NCBI GenBank assembly: GCA_018661705.1 | Contig: JABJHR010000003.1 | Coordinates: forward strand, 601-64,600 | From: Candidatus Woesearchaeota archaeon | GTDB lineage: Archaea > Nanobdellota > Nanobdellia > Woesearchaeales > DSVV01 | DNA length: 64,000 bases | Reading direction: 5' to 3' | Shown: one piece after another, positions 17,598 through 59,696 of the stretch | Layout of the letters: each line of letters begins with the position of its first letter | Position numbering within the stretch: position 1 is the first letter of the stretch | Made by a program: the position numbers and the translations under genes | Notes under the pieces: model-generated | What the model was told of the DNA's origin: nothing | The model's input: the letters and a program-made list of their open reading frames with translations, nothing else | Database searches by the model: none

Positions 17598-17648
17598 TAA
17601 AAAAACCACATGGCCTTTATAAAGATTCTCCTTGAAATTAACCAGAAA

Positions 17649-40253: not shown

Positions 40254-40281
40254 TTTATTCAGTTTAATTATTTATGATAAA

Positions 40282-45105: not shown

Positions 45106-45648
45106 ATGAAAACAAAAAGAGGTATGACTTTTATTAGTTGGATTGTGATTGCAATACTTTGTGTTGCGTTTATTATGTTTGCCCCAGTTATGGTTAACAA
45201 GGTATATGAATTAACAAAAAGGTTTGAACTACCTGATAATGCAGAACAAAATCTTCTTCAACACCAACAAGATCAAGAACAAAAAAGTAATGCAAAAAAA
45301 GCTTTTGAAGCAGGACAGTATAATGAAGCAACACAAGGTTATCAACAATTGATTGATAGAGATTCAAATGGAAAAGAAGTTCAAACATCGTTATTTGAAA
45401 TTGCTAAATCATTCTATGAAACAGATAAAAAAGATAAATCAATGATGTATTATAGATTATACGTCGATACTAGTCCAGGTTATAATTTTAAAGTTAAGAT
45501 TGCATATCAAGATTTATTATCAATTTACAAAGAAAAAGGTATGGGAACAGAAACAACTGCTTTATTAAATAAATTTAAAGAAACATACCCAGAAAGAGAA
45601 TTTGAATTTAATGAATTAAGTAAAAACATTCCAGGTGATGCAAAATGA
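45106..45648 (+). CDS. Class-III-signal-peptide (prepilin-like) protein with TPR-like repeats.
   Basis: MKTKRG|MTFISWIVIAILCVAFIMF is [KR][KR]G followed by a hydrophobic helix. AFEAGQYNEATQGYQQLI and FEIAKSFYETDKKDKSMMYYRLYV are TPR-like. Confidence 0.5.
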   Translation: MKTKRGMTFISWIVIAILCVAFIMFAPVMVNKVYELTKRFELPDNAEQNLLQHQQDQEQKSNAKKAFEAGQYNEATQGYQQLIDRDSNGKEVQTSLFEIAKSFYETDKKDKSMMYYRLYVDTSPGYNFKVKIAYQDLLSIYKEKGMGTETTALLNKFKETYPEREFEFNELSKNIPGDAK

Positions 45649-46034
45649 ATAGAATAATGAAGAAAAAAAACAATAAAGCTCAAGGTTTAAGCTTAAATAT
45701 GGTTGCTAGTTCAGTTATTGTTTTAGTTGTTATAATTGTTATTATTATTATTTTCACAGGCAAATTCTCATTATTTTCTGGAAGTATAAGTGCTTGTGAA
45801 TCAAAGCCAGGTGCAAAATGTGTTCAAGAAAATAATTGCCCAAGTACTGAAACAACACCCCATTATTTTTCACAAAAAATGGATTTTAAATGTCCAGATT
45901 CTAGCCAAGTTTGTTGTTATAGCCAATGTAAAGCAATTAGTGGAATTTGTAAACCAAGTTGTGGAAATCCAATAAATGATCAAGGACCAGCAGACTGTAA
46001 AGGAAATAATATCTGTTGTAAAGAAAGTTCATAA
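45645..46034 (+). CDS. Pilin-like protein with a 10-Cys C-terminal domain (paralog A).
   Basis: KKKNNKAQG|LSLNMVASSVIVLVVIIVIIIIF class-III-type N-terminus, then a SACESKPGAKCV ... CCYSQCKAISGICKPSCG Cys-rich module. Confidence 0.6.
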   Translation: MNRIMKKKNNKAQGLSLNMVASSVIVLVVIIVIIIIFTGKFSLFSGSISACESKPGAKCVQENNCPSTETTPHYFSQKMDFKCPDSSQVCCYSQCKAISGICKPSCGNPINDQGPADCKGNNICCKESS

Positions 46035-46042
46035 ACTAAACG

Positions 46043-46423
46043 GTGATAATAATGAATTTTAAAAAACAAAATAAAAAAGCACAAGGACTAAGCTTAAATA
46101 CGGTTGCAAGTGCAGTGATTGTTCTTGTAGTAATTATTGTAATCATAATTATTTTTACAGGTAAAGCATCACTTTTTTCAGGAAGCGTAAGTGCTTGTGA
46201 TTCAAAACCAGGTGCAAAATGTGTTCCAGAAACTGAATGTCCAAAAAAAGCTGACAATGTATTTTATTCACAGAAATTAGACTTTAAATGTGGAGATAAA
46301 GATCTTGTTTGTTGTTATAGCCAGTGTAAAGCAATCAGTGGGAAATGTGAACAAAAATGTAAACCAGATGATGATGATGTAGGTCCGGCAGATTGTATTG
46401 ATGGAGAAACATGTTGCAAATAG
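46043..46423 (+). CDS. Pilin-like protein with a 10-Cys C-terminal domain (paralog B).
   Basis: KKQNKKAQG|LSLNTVASAVIVLVVIIVIIIIF, with the Cys spacing conserved relative to paralog A (SACDSKPGAKCV ... CCYSQCKAISGKCEQKC). Confidence 0.6.
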   Translation: MIIMNFKKQNKKAQGLSLNTVASAVIVLVVIIVIIIIFTGKASLFSGSVSACDSKPGAKCVPETECPKKADNVFYSQKLDFKCGDKDLVCCYSQCKAISGKCEQKCKPDDDDVGPADCIDGETCCK

Positions 46424-46469
46424 GAATTAATCTTAATTTTTTTCAATAAAAATAATAACAGGTGAAAAC

Positions 46470-46760
46470 ATGTCAAAAAAAGCATTAAGTTTACCACAAA
46501 CCGCAATTGTAGTCTTTATTGTATTATTAGTTTTTTTAGGTTTAAGCCTTGTTTTTCAAGGAAAAGGGTATGCGTTTGTCCAAAAAAACATATTAGGGGC
46601 AGAAAAATGTATCACACCATTAGATTGTTCCACAAGCCTTAATCCAGGGGCTGGCGAAGATAATGACGGGAATGGAGTATATGATGGACAAATCACAACA
46701 AAAGAGGGTGTGGTTGATTGTGGTGCAGCAAATACTTGTATTATGGGAAACGCCCCTTAA
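46470..46760 (+). CDS. Small pilin-like secreted protein.
   Basis: MSKKA|LSLPQTAIVVFIVLLVFLGLSLVF, with 4 Cys in the mature part. Confidence 0.5.
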   Translation: MSKKALSLPQTAIVVFIVLLVFLGLSLVFQGKGYAFVQKNILGAEKCITPLDCSTSLNPGAGEDNDGNGVYDGQITTKEGVVDCGAANTCIMGNAP

Positions 46761-46852
46761 CAAACCCATGTAAAAAATTAAAGAACAAAAAACATTCAAA
46801 ATTTAATATTAAAATTTTCAATTAAAAAATAGAAAGTTAGTAAAAAAGTAAA

Positions 46853-49021
46853 ATGTTTAAAAAAAGAGGTACGATTGATATAGAATTCTTAGTTAATTTA
46901 ATTAGAGGTGTCTTGGTTTTATTTGTATTATTTATTATTGCAGCCTCTATTTACAGCATTTTTATTTCTGACAATAATCAAGAAAGAGTTTATGAAAATT
47001 TTTTAGGTTTTGTTGAAATTATTGAGTATATGCCACCAAACAGCCATTTAACATATGCACTTGATTTAGGTGATCCTGAACAATATTCTATTGTTGATAC
47101 AATTACTATGGGTGGACCAATAATTCCACAGGAAGAAACAAATGGTGAATGTAGATTTAAAGATTGTTTATGTTTGTGTGAGGGTGTTAGAAAAAATTGT
47201 GAAAATCCAAGATGTGTAAGAGTAACCTCAAAGATTGGTGCAAATATTGATGCAAATGAATTAGATTTACACCAATTTTGGTCCTCATCAAAAGATTATG
47301 TGGAAATAAATTATTCAGAAAAAGAAAAAGAAATGATCATGCCCGCAAGAGTATTACTAAGAAGAACAGGTAATGAAGTTGCGATTTGTAGATACATACC
47401 TGGGGAGCCGCAAGTTCATGATTCTTGTTTAAGAAGGTTTGATGCTTCAATTGCAGATAGAATGTTAGATGATCTTTCTCAATCATTAGAAAGGTGTGGA
47501 AAAAATAGTGCTGTTAGTAGTTTATTAACACCAATTATTGACGAAAAAACAAAACAACAAACATTTGTAGAAAATATTTATCAATTTGATTCTGATACAA
47601 ATCAAGTTTGTAGACTTGAGACACAAGAAGATAAATTAGAAAAATCAGATTGTCACAAATTAGATAAACAAATTATTCCTAAATGGAATTTAAAGAGTGA
47701 AGATGAAACATATGACACAAGAGAAAATTTAGGTTATATGTTTTTATACAAAACAGGCCCAGGTAGTAACTATATTGTAAATTGTGATGAGATAGAAGAT
47801 CCAAGTAAATTTAATGATTATTATGCGGAGATTAATACAGAAATAACCAATAATAAATATTCAGTAGGATCTGGTTTTTGTATTGATGGCGATACACAAC
47901 AATTTTTATCAACAGTTCAAGAATTTAACATTAATTTTGAAACACAATCTGCCCAGGGACCAGATGCAGACATAATTTGTTGTGAAACAGACATAGAAGA
48001 ATACTATAGTGAGGAGGAAAAAAGCTTTGGTTGTTTAGAATGGACAGACTTAAACAATTTAATGTGTTTAGATATCCCAACACCATACAAATCAAAATCA
48101 AACCCTGATTCAGTTCAATATTGGCAAGATCCTGAAACAAATAAAATTTCTCTAGCAATGAATTCTTGTTTAAATAACTTTAATATTCCAAATTCAGCAA
48201 TGTGTAAAGAGGAGTATGAAACAACACAATTATCCCAATTTCTAAACGAATTAAACAATAAAAATATTAAATTAAAAGCCTATCTCAGAGTTCATGATAA
48301 TAGCCAAGTATATTTTTCAAAAACAATTCCAATCAAAAGAATAATAAAAACTCCAGACGGTGAAGAACTAGATTATGAAACTAATAAAGAATTATTTTCA
48401 GAATCTGAAATTCAAGAGATAATTAAAATAGGTAATTTAAATGGCCTAGATTTAAAAGAATTAGAAATTTATTTTGATTCATACACTACAATTGATGAAG
48501 GAGATTATCTTTACCTCATGCCACAATTATTTGAAGATGAAAGTAATAAAAACATAAACAAGATTAGTTTAACAACAGGAGAGATAATGCCTTTGTATGA
48601 TGAAGAAGGTATGAAAACTAAACAACAAGTATTTATTAAAGAAGAAATTCAAGATTTAATTAAAACACAAGGAAATGTGATTTGTAGGGAAGAAATTGAA
48701 AACACTTTACCTGCAGAAGCAATAAACACAGAAACTGGAGAGATTGAAATTAGTGCAACAGGTTATAGCCTAGTTATTGAAAAAAATAAAGCATATATTG
48801 AATATGAGGGAGTTAAAGGAACAGATATTGTTTTACCAACAAATCTTGATTGTGTAATTTATACCTTTGCTCCTGGCAGTAATGAAGAATATAAGTTTGA
48901 GTCAAATGCTCCAAGAATTACAATAACACCCGCTGACCAAAACCCAAATCCTGAAATAGTTGATATTGGAATAGGAGAACCTTGTTTATGGCTAAAAAAG
49001 CCACATATTGAATTTAAATAA
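46853..49021 (+). CDS. Large (722 aa) pilin-like / pseudopilin protein, Cys- and acidic-rich.
   Basis: MFKKRG|TIDIEFLVNLIRGVLVLFVLFII is a canonical prepilin-type motif (Gly, Glu at +5, then a hydrophobic helix). Confidence 0.55.
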   Translation: MFKKRGTIDIEFLVNLIRGVLVLFVLFIIAASIYSIFISDNNQERVYENFLGFVEIIEYMPPNSHLTYALDLGDPEQYSIVDTITMGGPIIPQEETNGECRFKDCLCLCEGVRKNCENPRCVRVTSKIGANIDANELDLHQFWSSSKDYVEINYSEKEKEMIMPARVLLRRTGNEVAICRYIPGEPQVHDSCLRRFDASIADRMLDDLSQSLERCGKNSAVSSLLTPIIDEKTKQQTFVENIYQFDSDTNQVCRLETQEDKLEKSDCHKLDKQIIPKWNLKSEDETYDTRENLGYMFLYKTGPGSNYIVNCDEIEDPSKFNDYYAEINTEITNNKYSVGSGFCIDGDTQQFLSTVQEFNINFETQSAQGPDADIICCETDIEEYYSEEEKSFGCLEWTDLNNLMCLDIPTPYKSKSNPDSVQYWQDPETNKISLAMNSCLNNFNIPNSAMCKEEYETTQLSQFLNELNNKNIKLKAYLRVHDNSQVYFSKTIPIKRIIKTPDGEELDYETNKELFSESEIQEIIKIGNLNGLDLKELEIYFDSYTTIDEGDYLYLMPQLFEDESNKNINKISLTTGEIMPLYDEEGMKTKQQVFIKEEIQDLIKTQGNVICREEIENTLPAEAINTETGEIEISATGYSLVIEKNKAYIEYEGVKGTDIVLPTNLDCVIYTFAPGSNEEYKFESNAPRITITPADQNPNPEIVDIGIGEPCLWLKKPHIEFK

Positions 49022-49205
49022 CCCCTGATACATTTTATGCATTATTTAATTCACTAAATTTTATGTTTATTAATAAAGATCTTTTCTTTTAATAAGATTA
49101 TAGCATATAGTTATATTACCATTATACTCTTATATCATTATAATGTATTTTACTCTTAAAGACATGAAAAACTATATAAATCTATAAATTAATTGATTTA
49201 TATAC

Positions 49206-50330
49206 ATGTTTAAAAATAAAAGGGGTATTACACTAGATAAAGTCTTTTTAGTAGAAGCTATACTCATTGTAGTTGTATGTGCCTCCATCATGGTTTACAT
49301 TGGAAATTTATATAATGATACTTCATTTGACAAAAGAATAATTGCAAGAGATCTTGCATTTTTAGCTGATTCTGCTCAATCTGTCCCGGGAAATTTATAT
49401 TACGAATATACATCTCCCTTGGGTAAAAAAGATCATTCATTTATTTTTTCAAAAAACACCGCAATAATTGCAGAAGGTTGGTTCGCAAAGGTGGGATATC
49501 CTTTTTTCTATAACAAAAACATGATGTTTGAGTCATTTCCAATTGCTTTCAAGAAAAGTTTTTCTATTAGTAATTTTAATAATGTTTTAGTAATATCTCC
49601 TGAAAAAAGATTTGGGTTAAAACAACCAAAAGATCAATTTTATGTGGAAACTCCTTCACAAACATATGAGATAAGTGAAACTAAACAAGTTGCTGAACAA
49701 ACATTAGAATGCACACCACCAAAACTAGAAACTAAATTTACATTTGACATAATTGCTATTGATGCTGATGGAAATTCAGATACACCAAAACAAAACATTG
49801 CGGGAACACAAGTAGAGCATTTAATAACACATGATATTTCAAAAGCAATAATAGAAGAATTAAACATAATTTTAGAAGGCATTATTATTGAAACAAGACC
49901 AGAAATAGATACAACATACGATACAGAATCAAAATTACTTCTTATTCCACCTTCAACAAGTTTTATTTTACAAATAAGTACTGAACAAACACAAAATCAA
50001 AACAATAATCCAGTATATGCTTATATTCCAAAGAATAGTGAACTAAGCAATTACCTTGCTTGCACCATATTACAAAATTTGAAAAAAGAATTGCCAGAAG
50101 TAATCACGGAAACAAAGATATTAACACAGAACCAAGAAGATAATTTATTGTTATATGCAAATAAAGATCCAACTGGTGTAAATACAAATAAACAAAATTT
50201 AGCTATAAAAATTGGAATAGGAAACATCCTGCATGATAATAATCTATTATATGAAAAAGAAACCACGAATATAATTGCTTATTCAATAGCTCAAAGTATT
50301 GAAGAATTTCAAGAATCAATTAACAACTAA
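49206..50330 (+). CDS. Pilin-like protein (374 aa).
   Basis: MFKNKRG|ITLDKVFLVEAILIVVVCASIMVYI. Confidence 0.5.
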   Translation: MFKNKRGITLDKVFLVEAILIVVVCASIMVYIGNLYNDTSFDKRIIARDLAFLADSAQSVPGNLYYEYTSPLGKKDHSFIFSKNTAIIAEGWFAKVGYPFFYNKNMMFESFPIAFKKSFSISNFNNVLVISPEKRFGLKQPKDQFYVETPSQTYEISETKQVAEQTLECTPPKLETKFTFDIIAIDADGNSDTPKQNIAGTQVEHLITHDISKAIIEELNIILEGIIIETRPEIDTTYDTESKLLLIPPSTSFILQISTEQTQNQNNNPVYAYIPKNSELSNYLACTILQNLKKELPEVITETKILTQNQEDNLLLYANKDPTGVNTNKQNLAIKIGIGNILHDNNLLYEKETTNIIAYSIAQSIEEFQESINN

Positions 50331-50355
50331 AAAAGTTTGGGAGACACAACATAAG

Positions 50356-50955
50356 ATGAACAAAGTTAAAATAAATAAAAAAATTGGAAAAATAGGGAAA
50401 AAATCACAATTAGCATACTTCCAACTAATGTTTTTGTTCATAAGAATTGCGGTTCTTTTATTGGTATTATTTTCAATTGTTATACTTGTTCATATGTTCA
50501 TAAATGAGAGTACAAATATACAAAAAGAGGAAATCAACATGTTTACAGAGTTTTTATTATACTCTAAACACGGACTAAGCCATTACGACAAACAAGCAGG
50601 TAGACTTTACCCTGGAATTTTAGATTATGCAGAGTTAACTAACACAGGTTTAATTCAAGCAAAATTAGATTATGCTTTTGATTATGGAGATTACAAAGTA
50701 ATGGCAATTAAATTTAAATTTAACAGTTTAGTACCAGAAGTATCCGAAATCCAAGAATTTTATTATAATAAAGAGAGATATGATGAGTGGTTACATTTAA
50801 CAGGACTTAAAGCACGAATCACAAAACAGTTTGTTACAAAAAAACAAAGAACTGTTAATGTTATCATCAGAAAAGAAATTGAAATAGAAGGAATAATTAA
50901 AGAACAGTTTTTCCCTACAAAATTAGAATTAACAATGCTAAGCCCAAACACATAA
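50356..50955 (+). CDS. Pilin-like protein.
   Basis: MNKVKINKKIGKIGKKS|QLAYFQLMFLFIRIAVLLLVLF. The start is placed at the internal ATG (50356) just after the upstream stop. Confidence 0.45.
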   Translation: MNKVKINKKIGKIGKKSQLAYFQLMFLFIRIAVLLLVLFSIVILVHMFINESTNIQKEEINMFTEFLLYSKHGLSHYDKQAGRLYPGILDYAELTNTGLIQAKLDYAFDYGDYKVMAIKFKFNSLVPEVSEIQEFYYNKERYDEWLHLTGLKARITKQFVTKKQRTVNVIIRKEIEIEGIIKEQFFPTKLELTMLSPNT

Positions 50956-50967
50956 GAGAATTAAAAA

Positions 50968-51507
50968 ATGATAAAAAACAAAAAAGCACAAGAAACAATT
51001 ACAACAGATGCAATAGTTACACTTTTAATTGTTGTAGTGATTACTATGAGCTTTTTTTATGTAAATCTATTACCACATAACAAAGTAGAGAATAAAATTG
51101 AAGCCGATTATGAGGATTTAGAATCAAGAAGAGAATTATTTACATTACTAAAAACCCCATTAGACACACCATTTGAATCAGACTACGGAAATTCAGCAGA
51201 TAATAACTTTGCAAGCCTAATTGTTAAGTATCATCATTCTGAAGGTGATGTAAAACAAGAGTATAAAACAAAAGTTCAAGAATTCATTAAATCCTATACT
51301 CAAGAAAAAAGTCTTTGCTTTAATTTAGTAATAAGTGCAGATAATGATTATGAAACAGAGTTTATTGGTGATAATTCCATTTGTACAGAATATTATTTAG
51401 ATTATATTTCCATAAATGAACTTATTGCACATTTACCAACATTAGACTCAGAAAAAACAATCATGGTTGAAATGATGAAAACTAGATTTAAGGTTTGGGA
51501 AGGCTAG
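50968..51507 (+). CDS. Pilin-like protein.
   Basis: MIKNKKA|QETITTDAIVTLLIVVVITMSFFYV. Confidence 0.5.
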   Translation: MIKNKKAQETITTDAIVTLLIVVVITMSFFYVNLLPHNKVENKIEADYEDLESRRELFTLLKTPLDTPFESDYGNSADNNFASLIVKYHHSEGDVKQEYKTKVQEFIKSYTQEKSLCFNLVISADNDYETEFIGDNSICTEYYLDYISINELIAHLPTLDSEKTIMVEMMKTRFKVWEG

Positions 51508-51531
51508 TGTAAGAAGAAAAGAAAAAATCAA

Positions 51532-52851
51532 ATGAAAAAAATAAAAACAAACACCAAAATTTGGAAAAACAAAAAAGCAGCACACGTGTTTATGTTAATC
51601 TTATTAGGAATTACAATAATTGCATTTGCATCACTAATAGGAATTTTAAACATAAAATTAGGGCACGTAAAGCCTCTTGGTGAAGCCCCAATAACAATTT
51701 TCAAGGCTGTTCATGAGGGAGAGGATATATTAAATTATGTTGATGAAGGGGCAAAACATGCCGTAAGACAAGCAGAGTTTGACCTTGCAATGCAAGGCGG
51801 CGTATTAACATCTGGTTGTGGAAATCTAAACGGAATTAATTATTGGTATAAAGATGGGAAATTATGCATGCCAAAACAATACAAAGAAGATTTTAAGCAG
51901 ATTTTGTCTCAAAACTTGAATGTTGGTTATTACATTAAAACATCTGGATTAGACATTCCAACAAATAACTATGAAATAAAAATTCTCCCAAACAAAGTCT
52001 TAGGATTGGCAAAAAAAGAAATTGTTATTGATGGAACAAGAGTAGAAGTTCCGACAACTTTTAGTTATAATGTAGAATCCACTAATGCAGCAATAGAAAA
52101 AGATAAATTAGAGCAAACAAAAACACCTTCAAGCAATTTAATAACTGAAAATAAAGAACAAGGTAAAGAGAATATTATTTTACTGGGACAAGAATGCCAA
52201 ATCACTAATTTTATTTTAGATTCTGAATCATTATGGTATAACAATGCAGGGGGCATTAAAAATGCTGCAATGATTGAGGAATCAACTGAATATTACTACA
52301 ATCCAAATTATCATCGTAACAAGTTTTATGGTACAATAGAAATGGTAAATATGCTAGAAAAAGCAAGCTGCATTACAAAAGAACTTACAGGAGCAAGAAC
52401 TAGAATACACGATCTTAGCGCAAAGCAAGGAGGAAAAATTGGTCACAGATCACATCAAAACGGAAGAGATGTTGATACAGGTATTTTAAAAAACAGTGGT
52501 GGAAAAATCACATCTGTATTTAAAAATTTAAATGGTTCTAAAATAGATCTTTTTGATGCAAAAGCAAACTGGATATTCCTTAAAGCAATTTATTTATCTG
52601 CAAATATTGAAATGATAGGAACAGACAAAGAATTTATTGATAAGCTAAAATCATATACAGAACAAAATGAACCAGATAAAGAACTTGCAGCTAATATCAT
52701 TAAAAAATTATCTTATTGGAAGGGTCATGCAGATCATTACCACATTAGAATTTATTGTAGCCCAGAAGATAAAATGTGCAAAGACGGGTCTGCTAAAAGC
52801 TCAGAAAAAGCATACTGGAAAAACCAAGTAGAGGAGTATTTGGAAACATGA
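51532..52851 (+). CDS. Membrane-anchored LAS-family zinc peptidase, a homolog of MepA (peptidase M74, penicillin-insensitive murein DD-endopeptidase).
   Basis: IGHRSHQNGRDVD (SHQ.G.DVD zinc-ligand motif) and GHADHYHIRIY (H.DH.HVR motif), the two MepA/LAS signatures. N-terminus KNKKAAH|VFMLILLGITIIAFASLIGIL. Confidence 0.6.
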   Translation: MKKIKTNTKIWKNKKAAHVFMLILLGITIIAFASLIGILNIKLGHVKPLGEAPITIFKAVHEGEDILNYVDEGAKHAVRQAEFDLAMQGGVLTSGCGNLNGINYWYKDGKLCMPKQYKEDFKQILSQNLNVGYYIKTSGLDIPTNNYEIKILPNKVLGLAKKEIVIDGTRVEVPTTFSYNVESTNAAIEKDKLEQTKTPSSNLITENKEQGKENIILLGQECQITNFILDSESLWYNNAGGIKNAAMIEESTEYYYNPNYHRNKFYGTIEMVNMLEKASCITKELTGARTRIHDLSAKQGGKIGHRSHQNGRDVDTGILKNSGGKITSVFKNLNGSKIDLFDAKANWIFLKAIYLSANIEMIGTDKEFIDKLKSYTEQNEPDKELAANIIKKLSYWKGHADHYHIRIYCSPEDKMCKDGSAKSSEKAYWKNQVEEYLET

Positions 52852-54080
52852 GAAAAACCAAGTTTAAAACATTAGTTCAAACAATATTGGCATGCGTATT
52901 ACTCACAATGTTAATGTTTGTAGTTTCAACTACTATTTTTGGCGAAGAAATCATGTATATTGAAATCAATGAAGAAGACAACCTAAAAACCCTTAAAATC
53001 CTCGATGACTCAAATTTATTTTACTTATTTGGAGAGGATGAAGAAATTTACATAGGGGAGTTAGGAGAAGAAAGTTCATTAGAAAAGAAATTTATTGTTG
53101 AAGTAACAGATCAATTCAAAAAAACAATTTTAAAAGAAGAATTTAGTGATACAACAATATATATCCCTTACAACAAGAATATAAGACACATAAAAGCCTC
53201 AACATTTGGCCCTCAAATTCAAGAGAAGATAATAATAAACAAGGAATTCAATTTTTGTAACCAAAATAACATTTGTGAACCGTGTTTTGATAAAACCTGG
53301 TGTGAAGTAATGGAAAACTTTGTTTCTTGCCCAGAAGATTGTAATTCTGGCAGTAACGATAATTATTGTGATTTAGAACAAGATAGTGTATGTGATCCTG
53401 ACTGTATTAACACAAATGAAAATAATGTTGACAAAGACTGTGAATCCTGCCAAATATCTGATTATACCTTAGAAGGATATGAAAACATAGAAGAATTACA
53501 GGAAGAAACAAACAAACAAGAAATAACTCAAAGTAAAACATGCTATTACAACAATCTTAATCATCATTGTATGTTTGAATATAATGGTGTAAAATGCAAT
53601 AAAAAACAACATTGTTCAAATGGGGAATGGATTACACTTGAGGACAATACCGCATGTTGCTTAGAAGGATACTGTTTAGATGATGAAATACTAGCAATAA
53701 ACACACTAGAAGAAGAAAATTCATATCCTGCTGAAAAAAAAATAGAACCAACCATTAATATTGAAAAATATAAAGATTTTGGAACAGAACAAAAAGATTA
53801 TATTGGAACAATTATTTTATTTAGTATAATTATTTTGATAATTATAATAACTGGAACCCTGTTATTGTTTTATGAAATTAAAAAATCTAATGGTCATCAA
53901 GCTTCACCAGTGAAAAATAAATTACGGGCAAATGAATTAATCAGAACAATAAATGAATTACATTCCAAAGGAATGAATTATTCTAAAATTAAACAACATT
54001 TGATTAGAAGAGGATATTATGAAGAAGAAATAGATAATTACCTAAATCATCATCATTCTTCAAATAAAAATCACAATTAA
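52848..54080 (+). CDS. Type-I membrane protein with an extracellular Cys-rich acidic domain.
   Basis: N-terminal signal anchor, Cys-rich middle (CEPCFDKTWCEVMENFVSCPEDC ...), a TM near residue 330 (IGTIILFSIIILIIIITGTLLLF), and a basic/His-rich tail. 4-nt overlap with the upstream gene. Confidence 0.5.
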   Translation: MRKTKFKTLVQTILACVLLTMLMFVVSTTIFGEEIMYIEINEEDNLKTLKILDDSNLFYLFGEDEEIYIGELGEESSLEKKFIVEVTDQFKKTILKEEFSDTTIYIPYNKNIRHIKASTFGPQIQEKIIINKEFNFCNQNNICEPCFDKTWCEVMENFVSCPEDCNSGSNDNYCDLEQDSVCDPDCINTNENNVDKDCESCQISDYTLEGYENIEELQEETNKQEITQSKTCYYNNLNHHCMFEYNGVKCNKKQHCSNGEWITLEDNTACCLEGYCLDDEILAINTLEEENSYPAEKKIEPTINIEKYKDFGTEQKDYIGTIILFSIIILIIIITGTLLLFYEIKKSNGHQASPVKNKLRANELIRTINELHSKGMNYSKIKQHLIRRGYYEEEIDNYLNHHHSSNKNHN

Positions 54081-54111: not shown

Positions 54112-57100
54112 ATGAAAAAACAAAAAATAAAATTAGAAGGCAAGCAGTTATTTGTTATAGCCTTAATTGCAATTTTCATAGTTGCCAGCATATTATTTTT
54201 AAGTGATTCAACAACAAATGTAGATAAAAATCTTATTGGAAAAGCCACCACTACCCAAAATCAATATCCGGAAGATTATAAAGTCGTGTTTCTTTCTGAC
54301 ACACATGTATCATTAAATGGTGGAGTTAGACAAGACTTTAAAGATGCTGTACAAGCCACACTAAAATTAAATCCAAATATGGTTGTAGTATTAGGTGATA
54401 TGGTTAATGGTGGAAGAAGTTCAACAAGCACAATAAAAATTCAATCTGCATGGGAGAAGTTTGATGAAACAATACTGCCTTTAATAGATGCAGGCATTGC
54501 CGTATTTCCTGTTGTTGGAAATCATGATGCCGCTTATACAGATGAACTAGAACAAGGTTACAAAAAACATTGGCAATCATACACAACCCCAATATCATTA
54601 AAAAGTGGAGTTATGAATAATTATTATAGTTTTGAATATAGTGGGGATTTACATATTGTGCTTTATGTTCCAAACAGAATAAAACATGATAAGCAACAAT
54701 TAAATTGGTTAGATGAACAATTAACACAAGCACATACATTAAATCAATTAACAAATGAAAAACCGTATAGAAATGTTTTCTTATACACTCACAAACCAAT
54801 TATAACAATTAGTCCGCAATCAAGCCAACTTTATACCAAAGAGTTAGGAGAGATTATTAAAAATAGAATTTCTGCTGTTTTTTCTGGCCATGATCATGTT
54901 GTTGGGGTAACAATTATTGCAGATACAAACGTCCCACAATTTATTATTGGAACAACAAGTGGTGCCCTTGGAAGAAGAAACAGCGATGGTGTTTTAAAAC
55001 CATACACTGATTTAGAAGGAAACTCATACCAAAATACCTTTGGGTATATGGAGATTAACTCTCAAGGCTACCAAGTTACAAATATAGAAGAACCATTTGA
55101 TCAATTAACATCAGCAATAGGTTATACACCAGGAATTCCACAACCAAAAGATTGTAAGGACATGATTGGTTATGAACACATGCCAAAAATTCCAGAAGTT
55201 GATAAATTTGATAATGAATTTTTTGAAGAGTATATGAAAAAGATTTCTGAATATGAACCATACATACAAGAATTATATGAAAATGAGAAATATCAAATTA
55301 GACCCGAATTAATTAAAGCAATTATGGTTCCTGAAAGCAGAGGTAATGTGTATAGAAATAAAAAATACAAAAAAATTGATAATGCTGGCAATAAAATTGA
55401 ACCAACTGCAAAAGTATTATGCAACGGTAGGTGCAAACAGTGTAATTTTTGTGGGGGTCCAGGTGATGCTGAATTGTGCATGGAAAACAGCAAAGAATGT
55501 ATTTATTATGATAAAAACACATGGGAAAAAAGCATTAGTTCTTCTTGTGGTTTCTGTAGTTTGATGCAAACTAACATAGGCAAATGTGAAGACGTAGAAG
55601 AATGTGATGTAGAAAGATTCCTTGCAGGAAATCCCAGAGATGCAATTTTCTCTTCTGCAAAGTACATAAAAATGATTATGCAATCTTACAAGAACACAGT
55701 AAAAACAGTAACAAATAATAAACTTCCAGAACACAATTATTATTGGGCAATTGGTTTTGCTTACAACAATGGCCCCGGTAGTTTAAAAGTTGCAATTAAA
55801 GAGATTACTAAAAACAAATATGGGGGAGATTATTCTAGATTTAATTGGTGGGAATTAACAAAAGAGGATTTTGAACCAATCATGCAACATTTTTCACCAC
55901 ATGTTTCTGTAAAAGATCCCCTTGGCAGAGTTTTGTATGCGTTGCGTGTACTAAAAATTCTTCAACACCAAAACTTTAAAGATTGCGGACAACCAAATGC
56001 AAATTTTAAATCAATAACAGAAACAACAACAAAAGAATTAAGTACACCAGATACTATCTACATGGATATTGAAGATCAATTTGTTTATCAAGTAGATCCC
56101 AGCTTTAGTATTCCTTTAACACATGATCTTGACGTATATGTAAGATTAAGAGAAAAAGTATTTTTAATTGCAAAAGAAGTGGAAGATTGTCATGAAAGTG
56201 AAAAATATTTGGTAGAGGTTATTAGTAAAAACACATATGATAAATGCATGACAAAAGTCATTTCAAATAATGCAGAAATAAACTTACCGCCAAAATTAAA
56301 ATTAGAAATATGTGAAACACATGACACCATTCCAAATTATGGTTTATGTTTTGAATCAAAAGAGAAAGTATTTGTGAAAACCAAAGACAAATACTCAATA
56401 CAACAATTAACATACAAGATAGCATTAGGTTTTGATATACCAGAACTAAAAAACAAGGAAATTAAGAATAAAGAAATAAAAATACAAGGAGCCCAAACAC
56501 AGTACGCAAGTGGCGATACAATAAATTACGACGACAAGATTTCATTTACTGAAACAACCCACAATAATAAAGAGACATTAATTATTTCATTAGATCCTAA
56601 ACATTTTGACATAAAAGTAGAAAGTGCAAAAACAATTACAGGGAATCAAAAAGCAACACTAAAAGAAATGGTTGAGAAAACGGGTGCAATTGCAGCCATC
56701 ACTGGTGGTTTTTTTAATGTAAACACTGCAGAAGCAGGTAAAAAATGTTCAAGACCAGAAAAACGAAGTGAACCACTTGGATTGGTTGTTGAAAATTCCA
56801 ATACTTTAAGTGAAATGTTTAATATGGATTGGGATTGTCATTTAATGCAACAAGGAACAATTGATCCGCACCATATTTTTGTTGTTGATAAAGAATCACC
56901 AGATGAATTTATAATTGAGAGAGAAGAATATAACACAAACTATTTTGACTCAAACACTCCCAATTATGCGCTTCAATCTGGAGCATTAATTTATAATAAT
57001 GAACTTTTGGAATGTCCGTTCTCTAAGTCTTTTTGTACATCTTCACCAAAAAGAACTCTTCTTTGTATTACAACAGACAATAAAATAAAATTAATGGTGT

Positions 57101-57954
57101 TTCAATCATTAGCTTTAACAAAACTTCCATCTTGGATAATTGAAGATTGTAAAGATTTACTTAATTTAGATGGTGGTGGTTCAACATCCATGGAATACAG
57201 GCAAGGAGAGTATCATTCTGTACAATGGGAACACAATAAATATGAAGATGGCCAATTAGTAAAAAAGAAAGAAAATCATTTTACAACACAATCAACAACA
57301 GATGGGGGAAGATCTATTGTTAATGGAATATTTATTTATCCAAAAAAAGAACAAAACAAAGATTCAGAATCTACAACAACTTCTGAAGAAAGAAAGATTG
57401 CTGTTTTTGGTGGTTCAGTTGTAGCTCAAGCCACAAGTAATGACAATTCTGTAGAGGACTTTATTACAAGATTAAATACAAAAAACATTGGTGAAATAAC
57501 GGGATATGGTGACTATATTGTTGAGAGCGGCGATATAAAATCAACATTATTAACAACACTAGATCAAAATCCCGATAATGAATATCATGAAATTTTAATT
57601 TTAGCTGAATCAGATAATGTTTGTGAAAGCTGGGAAATAGTTAAAGAAGATTTACAAGATATGTACACTTATGCTAAGAAATCTAAAAATCTGCGTGTTG
57701 GAGCATTAACTGCGTTACCATTTAAAGGACATTTCTCTTGGAAACCAAAATGTCAAGAAGGCCTTGAAGCTTTAAACAACTGGATAATGCAAGAAGCAAT
57801 TGATGTTGATTTTAGAGTAGATCTTTATACAAAACTAGTAGATCCAAATGATAACCAAAAAATAGCTGATTCTTTAACAGTAGATTTTTATCATCCTAAC
57901 AGTTTAGGACATGAAAGAATTACTGATGAAATTCTTCTAATAGGTTATTCATAA
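54112..57954 (+). CDS. Giant (1280 aa) membrane-anchored multidomain cell-wall hydrolase: metallophosphoesterase, SLT lytic transglycosylase, DUF2233/phosphodiester-glycosidase-like and SGNH esterase.
   Basis: N-terminal TM (LFVIALIAIFIVASILFL). Phosphoesterase motifs VVFLSDTHV, VLGDMVNGG, GNHD, GHDH. SLT motifs AIMVPES...GFCSLMQ...FAYNNGPG (ES / LMQ / AYNxGPG) with a Cys-rich insertion. AAITGGFFN...NLDGGGSTS (DUF2233 LDGGGS motif). C-terminal SGNH: IAVFGGS ... FYHPNSLGHERI (GDS-like block I and DxxH-like block V). Confidence 0.6.
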   Translation: MKKQKIKLEGKQLFVIALIAIFIVASILFLSDSTTNVDKNLIGKATTTQNQYPEDYKVVFLSDTHVSLNGGVRQDFKDAVQATLKLNPNMVVVLGDMVNGGRSSTSTIKIQSAWEKFDETILPLIDAGIAVFPVVGNHDAAYTDELEQGYKKHWQSYTTPISLKSGVMNNYYSFEYSGDLHIVLYVPNRIKHDKQQLNWLDEQLTQAHTLNQLTNEKPYRNVFLYTHKPIITISPQSSQLYTKELGEIIKNRISAVFSGHDHVVGVTIIADTNVPQFIIGTTSGALGRRNSDGVLKPYTDLEGNSYQNTFGYMEINSQGYQVTNIEEPFDQLTSAIGYTPGIPQPKDCKDMIGYEHMPKIPEVDKFDNEFFEEYMKKISEYEPYIQELYENEKYQIRPELIKAIMVPESRGNVYRNKKYKKIDNAGNKIEPTAKVLCNGRCKQCNFCGGPGDAELCMENSKECIYYDKNTWEKSISSSCGFCSLMQTNIGKCEDVEECDVERFLAGNPRDAIFSSAKYIKMIMQSYKNTVKTVTNNKLPEHNYYWAIGFAYNNGPGSLKVAIKEITKNKYGGDYSRFNWWELTKEDFEPIMQHFSPHVSVKDPLGRVLYALRVLKILQHQNFKDCGQPNANFKSITETTTKELSTPDTIYMDIEDQFVYQVDPSFSIPLTHDLDVYVRLREKVFLIAKEVEDCHESEKYLVEVISKNTYDKCMTKVISNNAEINLPPKLKLEICETHDTIPNYGLCFESKEKVFVKTKDKYSIQQLTYKIALGFDIPELKNKEIKNKEIKIQGAQTQYASGDTINYDDKISFTETTHNNKETLIISLDPKHFDIKVESAKTITGNQKATLKEMVEKTGAIAAITGGFFNVNTAEAGKKCSRPEKRSEPLGLVVENSNTLSEMFNMDWDCHLMQQGTIDPHHIFVVDKESPDEFIIEREEYNTNYFDSNTPNYALQSGALIYNNELLECPFSKSFCTSSPKRTLLCITTDNKIKLMVFQSLALTKLPSWIIEDCKDLLNLDGGGSTSMEYRQGEYHSVQWEHNKYEDGQLVKKKENHFTTQSTTDGGRSIVNGIFIYPKKEQNKDSESTTTSEERKIAVFGGSVVAQATSNDNSVEDFITRLNTKNIGEITGYGDYIVESGDIKSTLLTTLDQNPDNEYHEILILAESDNVCESWEIVKEDLQDMYTYAKKSKNLRVGALTALPFKGHFSWKPKCQEGLEALNNWIMQEAIDVDFRVDLYTKLVDPNDNQKIADSLTVDFYHPNSLGHERITDEILLIGYS

Positions 57955-58117: not shown

Positions 58118-59167
58118 ATGATTAATATACCATATGATGTTGTAATTAAGAAAATTACAGAAAAAACAGGAACTTCTCAAGCAGAGATTGAAATTAAGAT
58201 AAAACAAAAAATGGAGCAATTAGCAGGATTAATTTCTAAAGATGGGGCTGCCCACATTGTTGCTAATGACCTTGGTGTTAAGCTAATGGAACAAGGTGGT
58301 CCAGTTAAGATAAATGAAGTCTATGCAAATATGAAAAATGTGGAAACACAAGGAAAAGTAACAAAAAAATTTAATTTATATGAATTTCAAAGAGGCGAAA
58401 CAACTGGCAAGGTTGCAAGTTTTTTTATTGGGGATGAAAGTGGACAAATTAGAATCACATTATGGCATGACCAAACAAAAGAATTTGATAACATAAAAGA
58501 AGGAGATATAATAAAAGTTAAAGGAACTAATGCGAGATTAAACAATAATTTTGTAGAGTTACACCTTGATACAAACTCACAATTAATGATAAATCCAAGT
58601 GGGGTTGAAGTTGGAGAAGTTAAGCAATTCTCAAGACAAAGAAAATCAATTGCAGACCTAAAAGAAGATGATAAAAATATTGAGTTACTAGGCACAATTG
58701 TCCAAGTATTTGATATTAGATTTTTTGAAGTTTGTGGAACATGCAATAAAAAATTACAACCAGGCCCAGATGGCCCACATTGTTTAGAACATGGAAAAGA
58801 GAAATTAGATCACAATTATGTATTAAATGTATTCTTAGACGATGGAAATAGCACAATAAGAGTTGTTTTCTTCAGAAATCAACTACAGAACCTATTAAAG
58901 AAAACACATGAAGAAGTTTTAGCTTATAGAGTTAATGCAGAAGGTTTTGAAAGTGTTAAAAATGAGCTATTAGGAGAAGTTATTAAAGTAATTGGCAGAG
59001 CTACAAAAAACAAAATGTTTGACAGATTAGAGTTCATGTCTAACCTTGTTTTTGTTGATATTGATCCAGAAGAAGAAATTAAAAAAATGGCAGCTGAATC
59101 AAAGCAAGAACCACAAACACAAAACCCAGTTACACCAGAAACAAAGCCAACAGATCAACCATTGTGA
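58118..59167 (+). CDS. rpa: Replication protein A (OB-fold ssDNA-binding protein with a zinc ribbon).
   Basis: Two OB-fold-like segments and CGTCNKKLQPGPDGPHCLEHGK (C4-type zinc ribbon), with a typical archaeal RPA arrangement. An AAGGGGGG SD is upstream. Confidence 0.7.
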   Translation: MINIPYDVVIKKITEKTGTSQAEIEIKIKQKMEQLAGLISKDGAAHIVANDLGVKLMEQGGPVKINEVYANMKNVETQGKVTKKFNLYEFQRGETTGKVASFFIGDESGQIRITLWHDQTKEFDNIKEGDIIKVKGTNARLNNNFVELHLDTNSQLMINPSGVEVGEVKQFSRQRKSIADLKEDDKNIELLGTIVQVFDIRFFEVCGTCNKKLQPGPDGPHCLEHGKEKLDHNYVLNVFLDDGNSTIRVVFFRNQLQNLLKKTHEEVLAYRVNAEGFESVKNELLGEVIKVIGRATKNKMFDRLEFMSNLVFVDIDPEEEIKKMAAESKQEPQTQNPVTPETKPTDQPL

Positions 59168-59210
59168 GCCTTGTAAAGCCATGTATAAAAGATAAAACAA
59201 AAAACGCAAA

Positions 59211-59696
59211 ATGATGTTTAAAACACACCGAATCTTTATTATTCTTTTTTGTTTAGTTGTTTATCTGAACCCATATAATTTATTTAATTGGATTTCTCTA
59301 CCAAATTTATTCTCATTTGAATTTCTAATTTTCATATTAATTGCCATATTTGCTTCAATGGTTCCCGATATCGATAACCCCAGTTCAAAATTAGGTAAAA
59401 ATGTTAAAATATTTGGTTATGTATTCAAACATCGTGGGTTTTTTCATTCTTTACCTGCATTATTACTTTTTTCATGGATTTTTTCTAATTTTGTTAACAA
59501 TACCTATGCTGCAGCGTTTGCTTTAGGTTACTTTTCCCATCTATTATTAGATAATCTTACCCACCAAGGCATTTACTGGCTTTACCCATTTAAATTTAGA
59601 GTAAAAGGTATTGTTAAATCAAATGGTTGGTTTGAGAAGATATTATTTTATGTATGCTTACTTTTAATTTTAATACTGTTGTTGTTATTAATTTAA
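59211..59696 (+). CDS. Membrane-bound metal-dependent hydrolase (DUF457 / YdjM-like).
   Basis: 4-5 TM helices, with the DIDNPSS ... HRGFFHS ... HLLLDNLTHQG motifs typical of this family. Confidence 0.5.
   Translation: MMFKTHRIFIILFCLVVYLNPYNLFNWISLPNLFSFEFLIFILIAIFASMVPDIDNPSSKLGKNVKIFGYVFKHRGFFHSLPALLLFSWIFSNFVNNTYAAAFALGYFSHLLLDNLTHQGIYWLYPFKFRVKGIVKSNGWFEKILFYVCLLLILILLLLLI

Follow-up and report, generated by a model that had tools for sequence, protein, structure and literature searches.

Woesearchaeota rank with the most abundant DPANN archaea that have not been cultured. Peptidoglycan hydrolases (PGHs) of DPANN archaea, read as tools against bacteria, have already been published (PMC12352652; PMC9723730; PMC8204110). 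Modular PGHs are especially common in Nanoarchaeota/Woesearchaeales in a survey that demanded a known wall-binding domain (LysM, PG_binding_1 or SH3), and halobacterial M23 enzymes are secreted and kill competing bacteria (PMC12352652). In published genome studies, the bacterial partners of Woesearchaeota are hinted at mainly through giant SLT proteins (PMC8204110; PMC9723730).

The 64-kb stretch of DNA analysed here (the window) encodes a 439-aa protein which is a genuine Peptidase_M74 protein of the MepA-type LAS enzymes with the predicted active site intact, set at the end of an array of genes with prepilin-like N-termini (Table 1). Our preferred reading, to which we assign a probability of about 0.7, is that of a surface-tethered MepA/M74 zinc endopeptidase of Woesearchaeota that would act on the bacterial wall at cell-cell contact together with neighbouring enzymes. 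A description of the two elements that characterize the locus, a carrier module (N-module) shared between hydrolases and a conserved prepilin-like array, was not found in the literature.

Table 1. The prepilin-like array, the M74 gene with its parts and the genes downstream (positions in the window; aa numbers of parts refer to the M74 protein).
Feature	Position	Strand	Basis or remark
Array gene 1, TPR-like protein, 180 aa	45106..45648	+	start KTKRG, then hydrophobic
Small pilin-like protein, 129 aa	45645..46034	+	NNKA/QGLSLNMV..., Cys-rich tail
Tandem paralogue of the 45645..46034 gene, 126 aa, 67% identical	46043..46423	+	
Third small pilin-like gene, 96 aa	46470..46760	+	MSKKA/LSLPQTAIVV...
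722-aa protein	46853..49021	+	start KKRG/TIDIEFLV; kept in syntenic locus L001
374-aa protein	49206..50330	+	start NKRG/ITLDKV
199-aa protein	50356..50955	+	GKKS/QLAYFQL...
179-aa protein	50968..51507	+	NKKA/QETITTD...; directly upstream of M74 gene
M74 protein gene: anchor module, linker, MepA-type catalytic domain	51532..52851	+	ATG start, 439 aa
Basic leader ending KNKKA and hydrophobic helix, aa 1-43	51532..51660	+	motif, hydropathy, AF2 helix 14-43
N-module ectodomain, aa 44-171	51661..52044	+	AF2 pLDDT ~81-90
Disordered linker, aa 172-209	52045..52158	+	AF2 pLDDT <50
Peptidase_M74 (MepA-type LAS) catalytic domain, aa 210-439	52159..52848	+	Pfam, AF2 pLDDT >95, Foldseek
LAS motif 1 HRSHQNGRDVD, aa 305-315	52444..52476	+	H308 (52453-52455) and D315 (52474-52476) aligned with zinc ligands of E. 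coli MepA
LAS motif 2 GHADHYHIRIY, aa 398-408	52723..52755	+	H402, catalytic His of HxH; H404, zinc ligand
Cys-rich protein, 410 aa, hydrophobic segments at N- and C-terminus	52848..54080	+	without prepilin-like motif
Anchored multi-enzyme, 1280 aa: Metallophos, SLT, NAGPA phosphodiester glycosidase, weak GDSL/SGNH	54112..57954	+	
RPA-like ssDNA-binding protein and YdjM	58118..59696	+	housekeeping context outside the system; mark array position

The assignment of the catalytic domain is carried by profile, sequence and fold alike. Pfam PF03411 (Peptidase_M74) matches aa 238-423 far above chance (E=1.8e-16; 60.9 bits, where the gathering cutoff is 25) and is covered from position 6 to 199 of 240, with the final ~40 positions unmatched. 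Among the PDB sequences, phmmer retrieves E. coli MepA (1TZP/1U10; E=1.5e-5) as the sole match with both motifs aligned, H308...D315 and H402-x-H404 standing opposite GHASHQTGLDVD and HRAHMH of 1TZP; the residue numbering of the E. coli zinc ligands follows the MepA structure paper. Comparison of the AF2 model of the domain with the PDB by Foldseek places MepA chains on ranks 1-5 (E 1e-12 to 6e-12, probability 1.0, TM(target) 0.60-0.66), with hedgehog N-domains as the next matches only at E>=1e-2 and no chain of VanY or another non-MepA LAS peptidase at E<=0.001. The pair C409...C416 downstream of motif 2 matches the Cys pair RCPADSLEC of MepA, and C222/C280 form an additional, clade-specific Cys pair. 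The NCBIfam model NF006947 (MepA equivalog) gives 61.2 bits at a cutoff of 272, and, judged at this level, the M74 protein and E. coli MepA are not orthologues. At NCBI the protein is labelled 'hypothetical protein' only; a few archaeal M74 homologues already carry automatic annotation.

An earlier note on this DNA had read the gene as a MepA-like M74/LAS homologue, which is borne out by the Pfam profile it proposed to search (60.9 bits against 25), by phmmer and by the fold, where MepA (E~1e-12) and not the hedgehog or VanY-type relatives named there as the competing outcome is the best match. It located the ORF and HRSHQNGRDVD correctly, whereas GHADHYHIRIY is present but begins and ends slightly upstream of the 52724-52758 given for it. 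Likewise, the membrane anchor it proposed corresponds to a hydrophobic N-terminal helix at aa ~15-43, and the lytic transglycosylase it placed next to the M74 gene is real but not adjacent, as it lies two genes downstream with the 410-aa gene between.

The same note asked for zinc ligands conserved in homologues, and indeed H308, D315, H399 and H404 are kept in 129/129 homologous M74 domains and H402 in 128/129. This conservation bears on the reading that the M74 fold serves as a silent adhesin, which would attach the cell by binding to bacterial peptidoglycan and leave the polymer uncut. Such a function would be in line with Pfam finding no LysM, PG_binding, SH3 or similar wall-binding domain at E<=1 next to PF03411, the sole domain, and with LAS-fold proteins such as hedgehog which serve binding and signalling; we consider it extremely improbable, as zinc ligands and catalytic His are kept across the 129 domains, all DPANN ones included, which is unexpected under relaxed catalytic constraint.

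In the structure model, the N-module of ~170 aa tethers the M74 domain to the membrane through the disordered linker. The start of the protein reads KNKKA/AHVFMLILL..., with a positive residue at -2, a small one at -1 and the hydrophobic helix following, and [KR][GAS] directly precedes the hydrophobic helix in 30/33 homologous N-modules. The ectodomain is modelled by AF2 as a long helix (51-87), the pair Cys96...Cys112, short helices and a beta hairpin, while C96, W105, C112 and P114 are invariant among homologues. It matches no Pfam domain, no PDB sequence and no PDB fold (best E=2.2), and a pilin-like fold is not supported.

The long disordered linker would also be a possible cleavage site if the M74 enzyme were a released, diffusible, bacteriocin-like hydrolase that kills competitors at a distance, for which the intact catalytic domain (by sequence and fold) and the demonstrated bacteria-killing archaeal PGHs, frequent in Nanoarchaeota, can be cited (PMC12352652). 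This scenario is nevertheless unlikely: a cleavable Sec/Tat-type signal is absent with the helix directly after the basic motif, no wall-targeting domain is detected by Pfam, the gene has about a dozen genes for membrane-anchored proteins around it, and the locus keeps a fixed, syntenic place on the chromosome, while weaponised PGHs are patchy and plasmid-biased (PMC12352652).

The catalytic head on the tether is exchangeable, as the N-module at the equivalent locus of related archaea bears other wall hydrolases. The 29 N-module proteins of an exhaustive search carry M74 (11), M23 (5) and M15_4 (4) heads as well as Amidase_3, NlpC/P60, SLT, VanY and lysozyme-like domains (one each), and another, independent 29 from metagenome loci carry VanY/M15 (14), M23 (3) and Amidase_2 (2). 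In the orthologue P0002, a CapA/PGA_cap domain is inserted at the position of the linker. The exchange of heads is presumably an adjustment to bacterial partners that differ in wall chemistry. The taxonomy of the N-module relatives is drawn from cluster names and locus context, a word-indexed profile search having given two matches. For P0020 (MFC1731645.1), an N-module plus M74 relative labelled 'KSB1 bacterium' at NCBI, we suspect that the bacterial label reflects mis-binning, since a Woesearchaeota protein is among its closest relatives.

Downstream, the start of the 410-aa gene overlaps the stop of the M74 gene by 4 nt. The SLT domain of the subsequent 1280-aa protein, which is labelled as an SLT protein at NCBI, scores 25.1 bits at a Pfam cutoff of 21.3 and displays the motifs ES (aa 408-409, within PESRG 407-411), LMQ (484-486) and AYNNG (550-554). 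An RPA gene is found at most three genes downstream of the N-module gene in 10/11 loci, and the array position, adjoining the RPA gene, is usually constant. No tRNA or Rfam RNA is present in the 64-kb window.

That the 1280-aa neighbour joins glycan-, phosphodiester- and ester-cleaving domains in the style of a digestive enzyme would also be compatible with nutrient scavenging, in which free peptidoglycan debris is turned into amino acids and amino sugars irrespective of a specific bacterial partner, and DPANN genomes are reduced, with scavenging lifestyles proposed for them (PMC9723730; PMC8204110). We hold scavenging to be decidedly unlikely, as the frequent exchange of heads at otherwise conserved loci better suits particular wall chemotypes than bulk digestion, a tether near the membrane restricts the reach to particulate substrate, and genes for muropeptide uptake or catabolism were not found in the array or its flanks.

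The archaeal nature of the host is evident from RadA, RIO1, Tyw1 and RPA on the window and from identical proteins deposited at NCBI under Candidatus Woesearchaeota archaeon (DPANN). The GC content of the M74 gene (0.314) and its codon-usage distance (0.143) are close to those of the window genes (0.305+/-0.025 and 0.171+/-0.028), and its GC3 of 0.216 is at the top of the set (0.176+/-0.020), yet still very low. Synteny is kept in relatives whose RPA is 46-75% identical, and PCNA or archaeal ribosomal protein operons are found on the contigs of the syntenic loci L001 and L016. Bacterial contamination or mis-binning of the window is ruled out by its archaeal markers together with the synteny on the PCNA/archaeal ribosomal operon contigs, and recent horizontal transfer is not supported in view of native-like codon usage and kept synteny. 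A viral/endolysin origin was considered as well, with no relatives of the N-module or of the M74 domain in two pattern-limited IMG/VR scans.

Among M74 proteins, those nearest to the window protein come from other DPANN archaea, and the nearest bacterial ones found are of Myxococcota type. In a neighbour-joining tree restricted to the top hits, the wider DPANN-like clade has a bootstrap value of 51% and the four-member clade of the window protein one of 98%; with a value of 30%, the tree gives no support to a single clade of N-module-linked M74 domains. By composition and synteny the M74 gene appears to be native. The archaeal host, the composition that does not look foreign and the long residence which the earlier note had proposed all stand, the last through native-like composition, synteny in divergent relatives and the DPANN-rich clade.

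Murein synthesis genes are absent from the 64-kb window and from ~10 kb past each end, and we know of no murein production by Woesearchaeota, so that cross-links of the bacterial sacculus would be the most likely substrate. Alternatively, the hydrolases might remodel the archaeon's own wall polymer or surface layer, for example for the passage of a filament; the M74 gene is located within an array of pilin-like genes, which parallels the murein hydrolases of bacterial pilus and secretion gene clusters, a dedicated murein hydrolase being common in bacterial trans-envelope machines. Such an endogenous role is very improbable. Apart from the lack of murein synthesis genes in window and flanks, LAS/M74 enzymes target D-amino-acid cross-links, from which pseudomurein is free, and at least seven murein-specific catalytic families are found in the same slot. 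In addition, archaeal classes that make pseudomurein possess very few PGHs (PMC12352652).

Nine co-directional genes in a row, with the M74 gene at the end, have prepilin-like N-termini, and related arrays comprise ~8-18 genes. The start [KR][KR][GAS] plus helix occurs in nearly all array genes; in a test on the level of the motif only, with class III signal criteria taken from the literature, it is present in 212/268 array products and in 30/212 products outside arrays (Fisher p~1e-48; PMC3387779). The families of the 199-aa and 374-aa proteins are together the most widely kept members: in 24/24 loci, at least one of the two is represented no more than three genes upstream of the gene for the N-module protein. 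The orthologue of the 374-aa protein at L001 has 871 aa with an Amidase_3-like region and Peptidase_M15_4, and the window copy is without the M15_4 end.

Whether such genes build a filament is to be judged against several searches. Pilin_N gives a single sub-threshold match (16 bits, cutoff 25.2) to the 129-aa protein, one of 29 small array proteins, and profile searches of the PDB sequences give generic TM helices only, or nothing. Of the filament machinery, neither an ATPase nor a platform protein nor a prepilin peptidase is encoded in the 64-kb window or within ~10 kb past each end, and none of the four genes that sample the upstream ends of related arrays codes for one. Many class III signal genes can rely on assembly machinery encoded elsewhere (bioRxiv 10.64898/2026.04.22.720090; PMC3387779). 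A basic stretch ahead of a hydrophobic helix also fits an ordinary signal anchor, and it is speculative that a class III signal peptidase processes the array proteins, including the M74 enzyme, and that they assemble into a pilus-like filament. As a tentative extension, which we regard as possible but doubtful, the locus would represent an RPA-adjacent type IV filament-like array of ~8-18 prepilin-type proteins, the terminal carrier of which, with its exchangeable hydrolase 'warhead', docks onto or preys on bacteria, with the type of warhead reporting the wall chemistry of the partner.

In the reading that we prefer, the basic KNKKA motif and the hydrophobic helix would hold the M74 protein in or at the membrane, while the ectodomain of ~130 residues with its Cys pair and the flexible linker of ~38 residues would display the catalytic domain outside the cell. 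There, the zinc endopeptidase is predicted to cut peptide cross-links of the D-Ala-mDAP type in the bacterial sacculus, and a division of labour can be envisaged in which the 1280-aa enzyme cuts the glycan part of the wall and the M74 enzyme the peptide part. With an extracellular bacterial substrate and the neighbouring genes in cooperation, the wall would be cut at the site where cells touch, with attachment, access to the contents of host or prey, or killing as the probable biological role.

As to its significance, the locus adds a second enzyme class, peptide cross-link cutting by prediction and with an intact active site. The shared carrier module delimits a family of archaeal wall hydrolases missed by surveys that demand known wall-binding domains, and the conserved array is easy to recognise and open to searches, expression and localisation. 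As the catalytic head varies between lineages, the type of head provides a testable handle on the bacterial wall targeted by each lineage. The isolated catalytic domains further offer a new source of possible muralytic enzymes.

Among known systems, the array resembles the class III signal-peptide proteins on archaeal type IV filaments, such as the Sulfolobus bindosome, in a short basic leader, a small residue, a hydrophobic helix and a variable ectodomain (bioRxiv 10.64898/2026.04.22.720090; PMC3387779). The cargo of the bindosome consists of solute-binding proteins, whereas that of the window array would be wall hydrolases, and unlike for these filaments, pilin homology, pilin fold and assembly genes were sought for the window array and not found. 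A functional analogy exists with the Tad-like Kil apparatus of Myxococcus and the type IV pili of Saccharibacteria, in which a predator or episymbiont uses a system of the type IV filament class to engage another cell; according to the available portions of these reports, both are bacterial with their ATPases identified (PMC8460266; PMC9894109). The locus shares with the giant SLT proteins of Woesearchaeota/Pacearchaeota, and the earlier AR20 genome, the lineage and the proposed wall binding or degradation, a theme into which the 1280-aa neighbour fits; the available portions of these reports treat glycan-cutting enzymes only and do not mention M74/M23/M15 partners, the N-module or a pilin-like array (PMC8204110; PMC9723730). 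Returning to the filaments, we know of no hydrolase-pilin fusions in the Kil apparatus or the Saccharibacteria pili.

With the archaeal modular PGHs (PLoS Biol 2025, PMC12352652), the M74 protein has in common a bacterial-type PGH domain in an archaeon that is read as aimed at bacteria. Having no recognised wall-binding domain, it would escape that survey, among the listed table rows of which the M74 entries are bacterial, and its chromosomally fixed, syntenic locus differs from the patchy, plasmid-biased occurrence of the modular PGHs noted above. E. coli MepA (MEROPS M74; 1TZP/1U10) shares with the archaeal protein the Pfam family, the fold, the H-x6-D and H-x-H motifs and the Cys pair after motif 2, at only ~17-18% identity to the M74 domain in the structural alignment. 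MepA is soluble and does housekeeping work in the periplasm of a bacterium that contains murein, whereas the archaeal M74 protein is anchored via its 170-aa N-module.

The simplest reading of the M74 gene and its neighbouring genes is that of a predicted surface apparatus which opens bacterial peptidoglycan at close range. An open reading frame of 439 aa with an ATG start lies where the earlier note placed it, and assignment to the M74 peptidases is borne out by Pfam (PF03411, Peptidase_M74, aa 238-423, E=1.8e-16; the score of 60.9 bits is well above the curated cutoff of 25). Of the two zinc-ligand signatures in the earlier note, HRSHQNGRDVD (aa 305-315) stands at nt 52444-52476 as reported, while GHADHYHIRIY (aa 398-408) is present but truly at nt 52723-52755, its earlier coordinates being off by 1-3 bases. 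In a sequence search of all PDB chains, E. coli MepA (1TZP/1U10) is the sole match (E=1.5e-5), with motif 1 (GHRSHQNGRDVD versus GHASHQTGLDVD) and motif 2 (HADHYHIRIYC versus HRAHMHVRLRC) in register, and chance resemblance of the two motifs is excluded on sequence grounds. With the AlphaFold2 model (58 input homologues; mean pLDDT 86.6), MepA chains are the first five Foldseek matches in the PDB, at E 1e-12 to 6e-12 with a probability of 1.0 and target-normalised TM of 0.60-0.66. The other LAS branch, that of hedgehog N-terminal domains, follows at E ~1e-2 only, and the best match to a non-MepA LAS relative that would have refuted the assignment did not occur.

Among 129 M74 domains aligned from an exhaustive HMMER search, H308, D315, H399 and H404 are kept in every one and H402 in 128, therefore the active site is under full constraint; a Cys pair past motif 2 is nearly as constant (C409 in 125/129, C416 in 124/129). 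That the protein could be a silent adhesin, binding without cutting, is at odds with this full conservation of the catalytic residues. A second Cys pair, C222 and C280 (52195-52197, 52369-52371), occurs in only 38-39 of the 129 domains, the window protein included, and may form a lineage-specific extra disulfide. Orthology to E. coli MepA was rejected, as the NCBIfam equivalog model scores 61 bits and its cutoff of 272 is not reached, which is also why the protein is named 'hypothetical protein' at NCBI.

The exhaustive search recovered 1672 proteins at E<=1e-3 and only 8 at E<=1e-30. The top-scoring source-named relatives are DPANN, namely Woesearchaeota proteins of 702-744 aa, giant Woesearchaeota proteins (1312 and 2816 aa) and one Micrarchaeota group; for the DPANN entries MBS3137931.1 and MFH0713028.1 automatic annotation has already assigned the name 'penicillin-insensitive murein endopeptidase'. 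When GTDB species genomes were scanned, a single close relative from an archaeon turned up, that of Woesearchaeota SI047_bin3 at 51% identity, followed by Sandaracinaceae/Myxococcota genes at 24-30%. In a crude neighbour-joining tree of the top matches only, the window protein and three others form a clade with 98% support inside a 37-member DPANN-like clade, which adjoins high-GC sequences, named Deltaproteobacteria/Myxococcota-type matches among them, with E. coli MepA distant. The DPANN-like clade has just 51% support; this placement favours an old acquisition followed by radiation inside DPANN.

The host is a DPANN archaeon, as the earlier note guessed. Products of the window include RadA/Rad51 (272 bits), RIO1 kinase, Tyw1 (a wyosine enzyme), an RPA-type OB-fold protein, gyrase A and a short RNase J. 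Several MAGs named 'Candidatus Woesearchaeota archaeon' at NCBI contain exactly the same M74, RPA, RNase J and 1280-aa proteins, and also the gyrase, matched within its 90% cluster, and all five deposited proteins are present too on a 922,230-bp contig. Composition is not foreign, with a GC of 0.314 for the M74 gene (window 0.305+/-0.025) and a codon-usage distance of 0.143 (window 0.171+/-0.028); its GC3 of 0.216 is the top of 28 window genes and still low. The guess of long residence was right in view of these native-like values. Several NCBI Woesearchaeota MAG assemblies split within the M74 gene (partials P0172-P0175; aa 1-209, 164-439, 250-439), and the contig ends cluster about the linker, where strain-level variation may exist.

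Features of the M74 protein, its gene neighbourhood and related arrays
Feature	Position	Strand	Remarks
M74 gene	51532-52851	+	ninth of nine consecutive genes, 45106..52851
Helix, M74 protein	aa 14-43		AlphaFold2 model
Second long helix, M74 protein	aa 51-87		AlphaFold2 model
Small beta region, M74 protein			invariant C96, C112; AlphaFold2 model
Two short helices and hairpin, M74 protein	end near aa 170		AlphaFold2 model
Disordered linker, M74 protein	aa 172-209		pLDDT <50; AlphaFold2 model
M74 domain after linker	aa 210-439		pLDDT >95; AlphaFold2 model
Small tandem paralogues, 67% identical	45645-46034, 46043-46423	+	regular pilin-like N-terminus, Cys-rich C-terminal head
Third small pilin-like gene, 96 aa	46470-46760	+	MSKKA/LSLPQTAIVVFIVLL..., Cys-containing tail
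374-aa array protein	49206-50330	+	short form of 871-aa orthologue at L001 6098-8713
Cys-rich 410-aa membrane protein	52848-54080	+	hydrophobic segments at both ends; no prepilin-like motif
1280-aa protein	54112-57954	+	Metallophos (calcineurin-like phosphoesterase), SLT, NAGPA phosphodiester glycosidase, weak GDSL/SGNH; no prepilin-like motif
Very large ORF running off window start	1-3690	-	>1233 aa here, 1749 aa on contig L066; N-terminal hydrophobic helix; region GC 0.36 (highest), strong GC skew (-0.5)
MoxR-type AAA ATPase with adjacent VWA-domain protein; TldD/PmbA metallopeptidase pair	15365-17609; 38916-41730	-	ordinary housekeeping modules, no evident link to array
Upstream-edge genes of several longer related arrays	L038 28-1056; L042 136-2139; L047 314-1147		bacterial thrombospondin type 3 (TSP3, calcium-binding) repeats; weak TSP3 matches also in a few small pilin-like array proteins

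The N-terminal ~170 aa (N-module) match nothing in Pfam, in NCBIfam or among PDB sequences, and the PDB fold search gives no match either (best E=2.2). In the closest orthologue, P0002 (744 aa), the N-terminal part is the same, the M74 domain is 51% identical and a CapA/PGA_cap domain is inserted in the linker. The exhaustive search also matched the first ~180 aa to >20 proteins without M74, and Pfam assigns to 29 N-module proteins Peptidase_M74 (11), M23 (5) and M15_4 (4), with Amidase_3, NlpC/P60, SLT, VanY and lysozyme-like once each. Scanning metagenomes separately, with a narrow alignment of the N-module, added 48 loci, whose 29 full or long proteins bear VanY/Peptidase_M15 (14), M23 (3) and Amidase_2 (2), the remainder being mostly short stand-alone modules or truncated ORFs. 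One module thus carries seven or more unrelated families of murein hydrolases and hardly anything else. One sub-lineage (L049, L052, L055-L060) has the N-module alone (~190-235 aa, no catalytic domain) directly before RPA, therefore the carrier can exist without a hydrolase head. All source-named N-module proteins are from Woesearchaeota except P0020 (MFC1731645.1; N-module and M74), which lies on a 19-kb contig under the label 'candidate division KSB1 bacterium'. The Woesearchaeota protein P0026 is among the closest relatives of P0020, which is either mis-binned, as we suspect, or the sole bacterial occurrence of the module. An endogenous role in the envelope of the archaeon itself would be a rival explanation to attack on a bacterial wall, but the murein-specific heads vary and murein genes are absent from the window and ~10 kb beyond each end.

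All nine array products start with a basic stretch ending in [KR][GAS], marked here by a slash, directly followed by a hydrophobic helix: KTKRG/M, NNKA/QGLSLN, NKKA/QGLSLN, SKKA/LSLPQ, KKRG/TIDIEF, NKRG/ITLDKV, GKKS/QLAYF, NKKA/QETIT and, for the M74 protein, NKKA/AHVFM. ORFs resembling the tandem paralogues number 37 over related arrays, often several per array, and the third small gene, whose place looks intergenic when ORFs under 100 aa are left out, has a 93-aa orthologue in L001, a Saanich Inlet Woesearchaeota contig also bearing PCNA. Gene order is matched on L001 and on L016, a more distant archaeal contig with an S13-S4-S11-RpoD-L13-S9 operon, whose N-module bears M23, not M74. In the 871-aa orthologue on L001, an Amidase_3-like region scores 25.6 bits, slightly short of the 27-bit cutoff, and a Peptidase_M15_4 domain lies at the C-terminus. 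Wall hydrolase domains can thus be borne by a second array gene too, and the window genome either lost them or never gained them.

In the metagenome loci the N-module gene is last or second-to-last in a co-directional array of ~8-18 such genes, with homologues of the 199-aa or 374-aa proteins at most three genes upstream in 24/24 non-redundant loci and RPA at most three genes downstream in 10/11. The strict motif, [KR][KR][GAS] plus helix, is present in 212/268 non-redundant array products versus 30/212 outside (Fisher p ~1e-48), and in 212/250 versus 30/87 when only proteins with an N-terminal hydrophobic helix are counted (p ~5e-18). A released, diffusible weapon of the classic secreted bacteriocin-like kind is an alternative to close-range action; against it, the locus is fixed and syntenic, and the M74 protein has neither a cleavable signal nor a wall-targeting domain.

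The array motif fits the criteria published for class III (prepilin-type) signal peptides of archaea, with a positive residue at -2, a small one at -1, a cut before the hydrophobic segment and no requirement for Glu+5 (PMC3387779), and a recent preprint argues that attaching functional proteins to type IV filaments by such N-termini is widespread in archaea. The small array proteins look like pilins: they start with K-K-[AGS]-Q-[GS]-I-S-I-N, their hydrophobic helix is very regular, and their head is small and Cys-rich. Only one of 29 matches Pilin_N, below threshold; profiles of array proteins against PDB sequences hit generic transmembrane helices only; the N-module has no pilin match in the PDB fold search; and neither the window, the 10 kb beyond it nor four genes taken from the upstream edges of related arrays encode a filament ATPase, a platform protein or a prepilin peptidase. 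As these formal pilin and assembly tests failed, we treat the filament as an inference rather than a finding, and a rather doubtful one.

The ATG of the 410-aa gene overlaps the M74 stop codon (ATGA), which suggests translational coupling; its product has no family match and is kept in L001 (33% identity). The SLT enzyme is encoded two genes from M74, ahead of RPA and YdjM; its SLT part keeps the catalytic Glu-Ser as well as LMQ and AYNxG, a long insertion rich in Cys separates ES from LMQ, and its L001 orthologue (813 aa) aligns only over aa 322-790. Besides glycan strands, its domain set might act on teichoic-acid linkages and O-acetylation. The M74 enzyme would cut the peptide cross-links of a bacterial wall and the SLT enzyme its glycan strands. 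The close-range reading is based on what is shown: the MepA-type active site is intact, the protein has a tether to the membrane or surface and a long flexible linker, the host is an archaeon, a glycan-cutting enzyme is encoded nearby, the murein-specific heads are exchangeable and the chromosomal locus is conserved. Debris scavenging is a further rival.

Wall hydrolases of archaea directed against bacteria are an idea already known, and automatic annotation has already named a few M74 homologues of archaea. In the accessible portions of the open-access papers and preprints searched, no description was found of M74 enzymes in archaea, of the shared N-terminal carrier module or of a conserved prepilin-like array closed by a hydrolase that can be exchanged. 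The main survey of archaeal peptidoglycan hydrolases demanded a recognised wall-binding domain, which the N-module hydrolases lack, and would therefore miss these proteins (PMC12352652). Close-range wall opening agrees with the experimental demonstration in that study that archaeal peptidoglycan hydrolases can kill bacteria, and it agrees with and extends published proposals of interaction with, or predation on, bacteria by Woesearchaeota (PMC8204110, PMC9723730, PMC10936187).
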